Assembly: GCA_041591895.1 (NCBI GenBank)
Contig: JBFHRE010000002.1
Span: 1 to 63,350, forward strand
DNA from: Acidimicrobiia bacterium
Lineage (GTDB): Bacteria > Actinomycetota > Acidimicrobiia > Spongiisociales > ZC4RG35
Reading direction: 5' to 3'
DNA: 63,350 bases
Shown here: positions 48,311 to 48,536 of the stretch, in pieces
How positions within the stretch are numbered: position 1 is the first letter of the stretch
How the letters are laid out: every line of letters starts with the position of its first letter
Made by a program: the position numbers and the translations under genes
The notes under the pieces: model-generated
What the model was told of the DNA's origin: nothing
The model's database searches: none
Seen by the model: only the letters and a program-made list of their open reading frames with translations

Positions 48311-48363
48311 AGAAAATGAGAAACCCCGAGAAAGATCCGGCCGAAACCGTCTCCCTCTCGGGG
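48311..48363 (-). terminator. intrinsic terminator of module U2
   Basis: Minus strand: CCCCGAGAGGGA...UCUUUCUCGGGG forms a 12-bp stem (2 G-U pairs), followed by UUUCUCAUUUUCU. Confidence 0.55.
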
Positions 48364-48501
48364 CTCTCTGCGCCGTTCTCCGGCGACCAGGCGAACCTAT
48401 CACCGTGTCCCGACGCTCGCTCCTCGACCTTGCGGTCTTGGTGCGAGGCACCTGTCCCTTGCGGGCCGGTTGCCCCCGCTCCGGGTTTCCCCGGCTCGGT
48501 C
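48311..48501 (-). ncRNA. putative ~190-nt structured small RNA (module U2), unclassified
   Basis: Bounded by a TTGACC-17-TATGTT promoter and an intrinsic terminator. Contains CCGGG-GAAA-CCCGG, CCC-GCAA-GGG, GACC-GCAA-GGUC and CGCCG-GAGAA-CGGCG hairpins. No credible ORF. Confidence 0.45.
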
Positions 48502-48507
48502 AGATGG

Positions 48508-48536
48508 AACATACGGACCCGGCGGCGGCCGGTCAA
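48508..48536 (-). promoter_or_regulatory. sigma-70/SigA-type promoter TTGACC-N17-TATGTT
   Basis: -35 at 48536-48531, exact 17-nt spacer, -10 at 48513-48508 (fits TANNNT). Confidence 0.55.

Follow-up and report, generated by a model that had tools for sequence, protein, structure and literature searches.

Tandem "sibling" small RNA (sRNA) genes are found in Escherichia coli, as OmrA and OmrB, and in Pseudomonas, as PrrF1 and PrrF2. In Actinomycetes, the RNA Ms1 is encoded by a stand-alone gene with its own promoter and terminator and has short 5' and 3' hairpins (PMC4191392, PMC9130861); Ms1 loci are marked by a HAD-IB hydrolase, and "PH" is among their secondary synteny words, which we took as a lead only (PMC9130861). 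Here we describe a small RNA gene, unit 1, in a 63,350-nucleotide (nt) stretch of contig JBFHRE010000002.1 (assembly GCA_041591895.1; hereafter the window), which has a GC content of 65% and belongs to an uncultured bacterium of the class Acidimicrobiia. Unit 1 sits in a 1.13-kb gap that separates two divergent genes, one encoding a RecB-like nuclease and the other a bPH_2/SHOCT membrane protein. We conclude that positions 48312 to 48501 of the minus strand very probably form an independent gene for a noncoding RNA of ~190 nt, which is a lineage-specific variant within a class-wide Acidimicrobiia sRNA family that had apparently not been described before. Soil, groundwater, activated sludge, and the sea harbor Acidimicrobiia in abundance, hardly any of which have been studied genetically, and a survey of the searchable literature by taxon, RNA type, and invariant sequences recovered nothing relevant, including no regulatory RNA from this class.

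To place unit 1 among its relatives, we gathered 80 species-level loci around homologs of the adjoining nuclease, which are labelled Acidimicrobiia in public records. BLAST of the whole RNA against these loci aligned only the 3' hairpin of ~50 nt, and we therefore used an alignment of the syntenic region together with a covariance model. The syntenic alignment contains a well-conserved canonical RNA gene of ~153 nt that adjoins the nuclease gene and is usually divergent from it; two CGCGAAA boxes, CTTGAC, a 17-nt spacer, and TAnnTT are followed by four hairpins, namely, P1 (GNRA loop), P2 (UUCG loop), P3 (invariant loop GGGGGCCCGCUUUCC), and P4, a long 3' hairpin with the near-invariant sequence CCCCGAGAGGG...CUCGGGGUUUCUC. 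Across a 30-species alignment, 96% of the cells in these hairpins are paired, compared to 34 to 66% in slid controls, and compensatory changes occur at 20 of 45 pairs (9.5 +/- 1.9 in shuffles, none of 500 having as many), including pairs in P1 and in the upper stem of P4.

The covariance model, R1, was built from 30 other species with the window sequence excluded. It matches the window at 48312 to 48503 of the minus strand over its full length (model positions 1 to 156; 57.4 bits, E = 1.7e-11), as well as the 3' part of a larger sister RNA, unit 2, at 47525 to 47667, and a search of both strands returned nothing further beyond weak antisense echoes of the two hairpins. In other species the model recovers 54 canonical copies that score above 100 bits, including 24 from outside the training set, and at least one match, together with a conserved P4, is present in 74 of the 80 species loci. 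P1 and P4 of the window RNA align to R1, while a central module stands in for P2 and P3 and is treated by the model as an insertion of 86 nt. This module is alignable only to one closer relative (L087) and to metagenome-assembled genomes (MAGs) of the same species and forms a cluster of its own within the family; all four closer relatives (L087 to L090) share the gene order and have RNAs with the same ends and different middles, the window-type middle being found only in L087. Between the window and L087, unit 1 is 94.2% identical and unit 2 is 84% identical, whereas the spacer between the two units is unalignable (24%) and third codon positions of the nuclease gene are only 51.5% identical, a contrast that speaks for strong purifying selection acting on both RNAs.

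That the P4 stem is nearly invariant class-wide is unusual for a terminator, and the window has two copies of the hairpin 787 nt apart; both facts could be accommodated if P4 were a dispersed repeat (of the repetitive extragenic palindromic or miniature inverted-repeat transposable element kind), a terminator cassette, or a palindrome acting at the DNA level, with the apparent gene arising by chance juxtaposition. We find this scarcely credible, as the two copies are the only ones in 63 kb and both lie within the gap, and a search for the P4 pattern in 2.9 million viral contigs found none; on these two counts a genome-wide repeat or terminator cassette was rejected. Moreover, P4 is syntenic in 74 of 80 species, always occurs with the same promoter at fixed distances, has compensatory changes in its upper stem, as do the other helices, and is transcribed.

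The architecture of unit 1 in the window is that of an independent RNA gene. For the minus-strand transcript, the folding energy is -108.3 kcal/mol (z = -6.3; none of 200 shuffles was as good), compared to a z of only -2.0 for the plus strand, and its minimum free energy (MFE) structure is a chain of five consecutive hairpins capped by tetraloops, much as the original prediction, which was made from the sequence alone, had it. P1 and P4 are the constant modules of the family, and between them lie three hairpins whose loops are GCAA, GCAA, and of the UUCG type. A classical intrinsic terminator with a 12-bp stem had also been proposed: the stem (48363 to 48352 pairing with 48335 to 48324, 2 G-U pairs included) and the tail UUUCUCAUUUUCU are located as described, but the stem-loop had been drawn too small and is really a 51-nt structure with an inner helix, in which GAGAG...UUUCUC lengthens the stem at its foot and the 16-nt "loop" forms an extra 4-bp helix with a tetraloop cap. 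The GC-rich hairpin is followed by 9 U among the next 13 nt, as in an intrinsic terminator; our terminator scan missed it because the scan had a loop limit of 8 nt. U-rich tracts are as rare as had been claimed, with three T-rich tracts (≥9 T in 13) in the 126.7 kb of both strands, one of which is the unit 1 tail.

The promoter fared equally well. The proposed TTGACC, exact 17-nt spacer, and TATGTT are the single promoter-like site within 44000 to 53000 in a consensus scan, and only three sites in the whole window, counting both strands, have at least 9 of 12 consensus matches, among which that of unit 1 alone combines TTGAC with a 17-nt spacer. Exactly two occurrences of CGCGAAA-N11-16-CGCGAAA are present in the window (0.01 expected), each in front of one of the two RNA genes; the double box is also kept ahead of the RNAs in other species and is a putative promoter element specific to this RNA family.

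A protein-coding interpretation of the region has next to no chance of being correct. It would draw on the long frame that is open in this 65% GC sequence, an open reading frame (ORF) of 354 aa spanning 47472 to 48536 on the minus strand, and on gene callers, which predict a hypothetical protein of 316 to 342 aa across both RNA genes in public annotations of six MAG contigs (L001 to L005 among our loci). However, the "start" of the 354-aa ORF coincides with the -35 hexamer, and its GC content by codon position is 0.69/0.65/0.71; ORFs in the gap are generally flat at 0.62 to 0.71 and have no Pfam match, whereas genes have a signature of ~0.65/0.47/0.82. The frame is lost in relatives, the spacer has large non-triplet indels, and conservation tracks the RNA helices. 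The gap is free of called genes in L087, L088, and L090, and in L089 the only one is on the other strand. Based on the codon signature and Pfam, we reject the 354-aa ORF as a coding sequence as far as sequence analysis goes, and the 316- to 342-aa call, with no Pfam match, no codon signature, and no conservation, is an annotation artifact. The unit 1 RNA contains zero ATG, zero TTG, and two GTG triplets; the claim that it has no ORF was borne out.

Unit 1 is transcribed in a close relative, as shown by a 183-nt contig from an aquatic cDNA metatranscriptome that covers 48314 to 48484 with 98% identity and four mismatches; the contig runs to 48314 and then continues for 12 nt unlike the window. 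A search with the window locus found no metatranscriptome contigs over the unit 1 promoter or the nuclease gene. Contigs over unit 2 (47551 to 48033) have 88 to 98% identity and depths of 63 to 457 in sludge, soil, and aquatic metatranscriptomes, and the canonical small RNA is present in soil, ice, groundwater, sediment, and marine metatranscriptomes. At one locus with a canonical RNA (L020), the small RNA reaches depths of 460 to 1600 and the large RNA a summed depth of up to ~6e5 in a single groundwater run; contigs of the L020 small RNA from one soil run end ~8 nt past the GGGG of P4, followed by A10 or adapter, which fits termination at P4. The 183-nt contig, the R1 homology, the selection seen against L087, and the recurrent promoter-terminator architecture together support the view, already put forward in the original prediction, that unit 1 is a self-contained RNA gene. 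That prediction did not extend to the wider family, to the larger RNA beside unit 1, or to the erroneous protein call in MAGs.

Several points weigh against this interpretation or temper it. The expression evidence consists of assembled, unstranded contigs of public metatranscriptomes that possibly include DNA and are not end-mapped. The window-type middle is confined to the window species and L087, so its fold rests on thermodynamics and not on covariation. The window copy lacks the invariant loop GGGGGCCCGCUUUCC, and its function may be different or reduced. Finally, the sequence conservation of P4 exceeds what termination needs, which suggests an additional role and points to a protein that recognizes this hairpin.

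The paralogous promoter boxes and 3' hairpin found further down the same strand indicate that the gap holds two tandem RNA genes, the second of which, unit 2, begins ~270 nt downstream of unit 1. Its chain of GNRA- and UUCG-capped hairpins contains conserved blocks such as CGGGGAUCCUUCGGGAUCGUC, and its homologs in other species are ~250 to 500 nt long (e.g., L020:1968-2345 and L047:2705-3090). The pair is not always contiguous, because at L020 an ORF (2435 to 3120, minus strand) that looks coding and, by eye, methyltransferase-like is inserted between the small and large RNAs; at several further loci the two hairpins stand comparably far apart. Also by eye, we saw that 9 nt of the canonical loop (CCGCUUUCC) are complementary to a segment of unit 2 (GGAGAGCGG), but a pairing of the two RNAs was set aside because this unit 2 segment is taken up by predicted stems and GC-rich RNA can be expected to contain matches of this kind.

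Since the RNAs and the bPH_2 gene are on the same strand, the 3' hairpin of unit 2 ends 35 nt before the bPH_2 ATG, many metagenome contigs have P4 immediately ahead of a bPH_2 gene, and one ice metatranscriptome contig spans units 1 and 2, we also considered a cis-acting leader or attenuator within a long 5' untranslated region governing the bPH_2/SHOCT gene that follows. This is very improbable, given that what follows unit 1 is another complete promoter and not a gene, that the bPH_2 gene starts without a leader from a conserved -10 of its own (TAGCCT), and that family members occur in unrelated contexts, at times convergent with the next gene. An apparent protein gene between the two RNAs at L020 and a reversed small RNA at L046 likewise speak against a leader.

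Unit 1 belongs to a broad family. The P4 pattern was found in at least 120 stretches of metagenome contigs, of which we analyzed the first 80 (L091 to L170). A nuclease gene, a bPH_2 gene, or both lie beside P4 in ~58 of these 80 loci, and neither is within reach in ~20, many of them on short contigs. The longer contigs with neither gene present unrelated contexts, with next genes that are convergent or unrelated, and encode a third subtype of ~160 nt that has the same boxes, P1, and P4 and its own conserved middle. This middle, GUGACCGAGAGGUGAC..., is found at L126:1390-1549, L136:3933-4092, L148:6646-6807, and L101:7207-7366, and L128 has the third subtype as a tandem pair (3892 to 4051 and 4263 to 4423). 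In related loci we counted 249 instances of the promoter architecture, and P4 follows within 900 nt in 226 of them; the remaining 23 all begin like the large RNA. Transcript lengths from promoter to P4 cluster at ~140 to 160 nt and ~250 to 500 nt.

Clustering of 111 distinct small RNAs by their middles yielded 68 canonical members, ~15 of the third subtype, a pair formed by the window and L087, and several singletons. All 68 canonical RNAs carry GGGCCCGCTT, whereas the window and L087 RNAs are without it. The family as a whole is built from constant ends and exchangeable middles. The window RNA has the sigma-A-type promoter with two boxes, both P1 and P4 in a full-length R1 match, the P4 features CCCCGAGAGGG...CUCGGGG and UUUCUC, and a location between nuclease and bPH_2/SHOCT genes that recurs in L087 to L090 and most metagenome loci. 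It does not have the canonical middle (P2, P3, and the P3 loop) and is therefore filed as a variant subtype and not as a canonical member. The small RNA is on the nuclease strand, and not divergent, at L046:3259-3412 (+), L039:3240-3400 (+), and L044:3224-3383 (+), so its orientation is not fixed.

TABLE 1 Positions in the window of the two RNA genes, their control elements, and the flanking genes
Feature	Position	Strand	Basis or remark
Small RNA (unit 1), ~185-190 nt, noncoding	~48501-48312	minus	Model match, fold, conservation, metatranscriptome contig
-35 hexamer TTGACC	48531-48536	minus	CTTGAC kept in 33-species alignment
-10 hexamer TATGTT, 17-nt spacer	48508-48513	minus	TAnnTT at same place in other species
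Predicted transcription start of unit 1	48500-48501	minus	Model match begins at 48503
Double box CGCGAAAACAAAACGGGAGTCGCGAAA	48555-48581	minus	Two CGCGAAA ~20 nt apart, ending ~18 nt upstream of -35
P1, 5' hairpin CCGAGCCGGG-GAAA-CCCGGAGCGG	48476-48499	minus	Begins 2-3 nt after predicted start; model positions 1-36
Variable central module (hairpins 48447-48474, 48417-48446, 48370-48416)	48370-48474	minus	MFE structure
P4, 3' hairpin GAGAGCCCCGAGAGGGAGACGGUUUCGGCCGGAUCUUUCUCGGGGUUUCUC	48318-48368	minus	51 nt, -34.9 kcal/mol; terminator stem, constant family module
U-rich tail UUUCUCAUUUUCU	48311-48323	minus	First six bases can also pair with GAGAG at P4 foot
Larger RNA (unit 2), ~520 nt	~48043-47525	minus	Paralogous box and 3' hairpin, model match, metatranscriptome contigs
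Unit 2 double CGCGAAA box	48097-48123	minus	Repeat 77% identical to 48542-48584
Unit 2 -10 TAACTT	48050-48055	minus	Followed by 5' hairpin and long hairpin chain
Unit 2 3' hairpin, then UUUCUCGCG	47531-47581	minus	Paralog of P4
bPH_2/SHOCT membrane protein gene	46900-47496	minus	Pfam
RecB-like PD-(D/E)XK (PDDEXK_1) nuclease gene	48631-49551	plus	Pfam
Divergent promoter and leaderless nuclease start TGTCATTCGCGATTCG-TATAGT-GGACCC-ATG	48603-48633	plus	Outside the RNA gene; other edge of shared control region

The positions of both RNA genes and their neighbors are collected in Table 1. The window genes recur exactly in several marine-sediment MAG contigs, and adnA- and adnB-like helicase-nuclease genes lie 3' of the nuclease gene. 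A motif TGTC-N12-TAnnnT precedes the nuclease gene in 51 of 74 related loci (at ~3420 to 3480), with the start codon only 4 to 9 nt later, which indicates a leaderless mRNA. The nuclease promoter is similar to the RecA-NDp motif (tgtcRgtg-N8-TAnnnT), which depends on PafBC and belongs to actinobacterial DNA-damage genes; this similarity would fit the adnAB-like genes downstream. The nuclease in the window has a repetitive N-terminal extension, NTPAQNTPAQTPAQ, encoded by short tandem repeats (three of ACGCCAGCCCAG and two of CCCAGAACACGCCAG; 48653 to 48699, plus strand); its homologs are without the extension, and alignment to them begins only at about residue 45. The bPH_2/SHOCT gene is also apparently leaderless, with the conserved GTAGCCTC (-10 TAGCCT) 7 nt ahead of the ATG (47496 to 47515, minus strand), and its -10 region lies only ~15 nt past the tail of the large RNA's terminator. 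The sole Rfam match at gathering level in the window is PYLIS_3 (26637 to 26736, plus strand; 38.6 bits against a threshold of 38), which has CUG in place of the UAG codon of the model and is probably a borderline false positive.

Neither RNA could be assigned to a described class. Rfam 15 at the gathering threshold gave no match in the region or in 18 homologous loci, permissive searches (E up to 10) gave only chance-level matches for the window RNAs and likewise nothing for canonical unit 1 or for unit 2, and ARAGORN found no tRNA or tmRNA in 46500 to 49500. The best weak Rfam score was for F6 (RF01791), at 16.5 to 18.9 bits against a threshold of 46. No Rfam model of 6S RNA matched in any scan, permissive ones included, and the long irregular helix with a central bubble that the paired 5' and 3' ends form in 6S is absent from the MFE and consensus structures of unit 1, which are chains of local hairpins instead. 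A test against the CsrB/RsmZ clan returned only RsmW, whose 12.4 bits against a threshold of 52 are not significant. The abundance, the host phylum, the terminal hairpins, and the "PH" synteny word prompted a comparison with Ms1, for which we took the 304-nt Mycobacterium smegmatis sequence from the supplement of PMC4191392. BLAST of this sequence gave only chance matches, none of them in the gap; Ms1 folds as a rod of ~300 nt with a central bubble, whereas units 1 and 2 fold as chains of local hairpins, and HAD-IB hydrolase is not among the flanking genes, which encode bPH_2/SHOCT and PDDEXK_1 proteins. Homology to Ms1 was rejected because there is no similarity and the fold is different.

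A functional analogy to these RNAs is a separate matter. The two RNAs could be decoys that sequester RNA polymerase, as 6S and Ms1 do, or another protein, as in the CsrB/RsmZ systems, and would then not act by base pairing. The very high depths in metatranscriptomes from nutrient-poor habitats, above all those of both L020 RNAs, are in keeping with such a role, as are the strong promoter with its upstream element, the hairpins protecting the ends, and the repeated GNRA-capped hairpin modules of unit 2; Ms1 likewise has terminal hairpins and its own promoter and terminator (PMC4191392, PMC9130861). Nevertheless, the missing 6S match and M. smegmatis Ms1 similarity, local-hairpin chains in place of a bubbled rod, flanking genes other than the HAD-IB hydrolase of Ms1 loci (PMC9130861), and an RsmW match of only 12 bits make sequestration rather unlikely. 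We rank it second, after a trans-acting regulator, and regard it as more plausible for the large RNA.

The function that we tentatively favor for unit 1, as a possibility well short of a firm assignment, is that of a trans-acting regulator that acts by base pairing with other RNAs or by protein binding. P4 with its U-rich tail would terminate transcription, and P1 and P4 together would keep exonucleases and end-dependent RNases away from the RNA ends and so make the RNA stable and abundant. The CGCGAAA boxes may co-regulate or boost all members of the family, either as phased A-tracts that bend the DNA or work like an UP element, or by binding a factor, and the exchangeable middle module would give each member its specificity. 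A bolder possibility, which we consider unlikely as matters stand, is that both RNAs represent a class-wide abundant family in which the invariant P4 serves as a protein handle, making them counterparts of the 6S, Ms1, and CsrB global regulators. If true, Acidimicrobiia would have a counterpart of these regulators on a different architecture, with constant ends, plug-in middles, and a dedicated promoter element.

The family as a whole and its abundant large RNA are more striking than unit 1 alone. The family is easily recognized because its promoter element and its 5' and 3' hairpins are all fixed, and it is a candidate for the 6S/Ms1-type or other global RNA regulators that are missing in this class. 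As these RNAs are absent from Rfam and misannotated as hypothetical proteins in public MAGs, the covariance model should aid their correct annotation, and the locus offers a natural pair of strong promoter and terminator for a group that is short of genetic tools.

Comparison with known systems brings out both what is familiar and what is distinctive in this locus. P4 and its tail resemble a canonical intrinsic terminator in having a GC stem followed by a U-rich tract, with an upstream purine run (GAGAG) able to pair with that tract; unlike canonical terminators, the stem-loop is 51 nt long with an inner helix, its sequence is nearly invariant across the class, and the tail in most family members is merely UUUCUCGCG. 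Like unit 1, F6 is a small, GC-rich, hairpin-rich sRNA of Actinomycetota, and it has a similar GCCCCG...CGGGGC stem; 6C RNA (RF01066) is also a hairpin-rich sRNA of Actinomycetota but gives no match at all, and neither has the promoter boxes or the P1 or P4 sequence. OmrA/OmrB and PrrF1/PrrF2 are similar to units 1 and 2 in being adjacent same-strand genes, each with a promoter and terminator, that share a promoter regulatory element and have conserved RNA ends with differing centers. Units 1 and 2, in contrast, are of very unequal size (~190 versus ~520 nt), their conserved 5' end is a closed hairpin and not a single-stranded seed, and the Acidimicrobiia family is class-wide, has exchangeable middles, and has no known link to an Hfq-type chaperone. 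With 6S and Ms1, the family shares a stand-alone gene, a sigma-A-like promoter, an intrinsic terminator, and high abundance, and with Ms1 also the host phylum and short hairpins near both ends; it differs from them in its sequence and model scores, in folding as chains of local hairpins and not as a bubbled rod, and in its neighboring genes.

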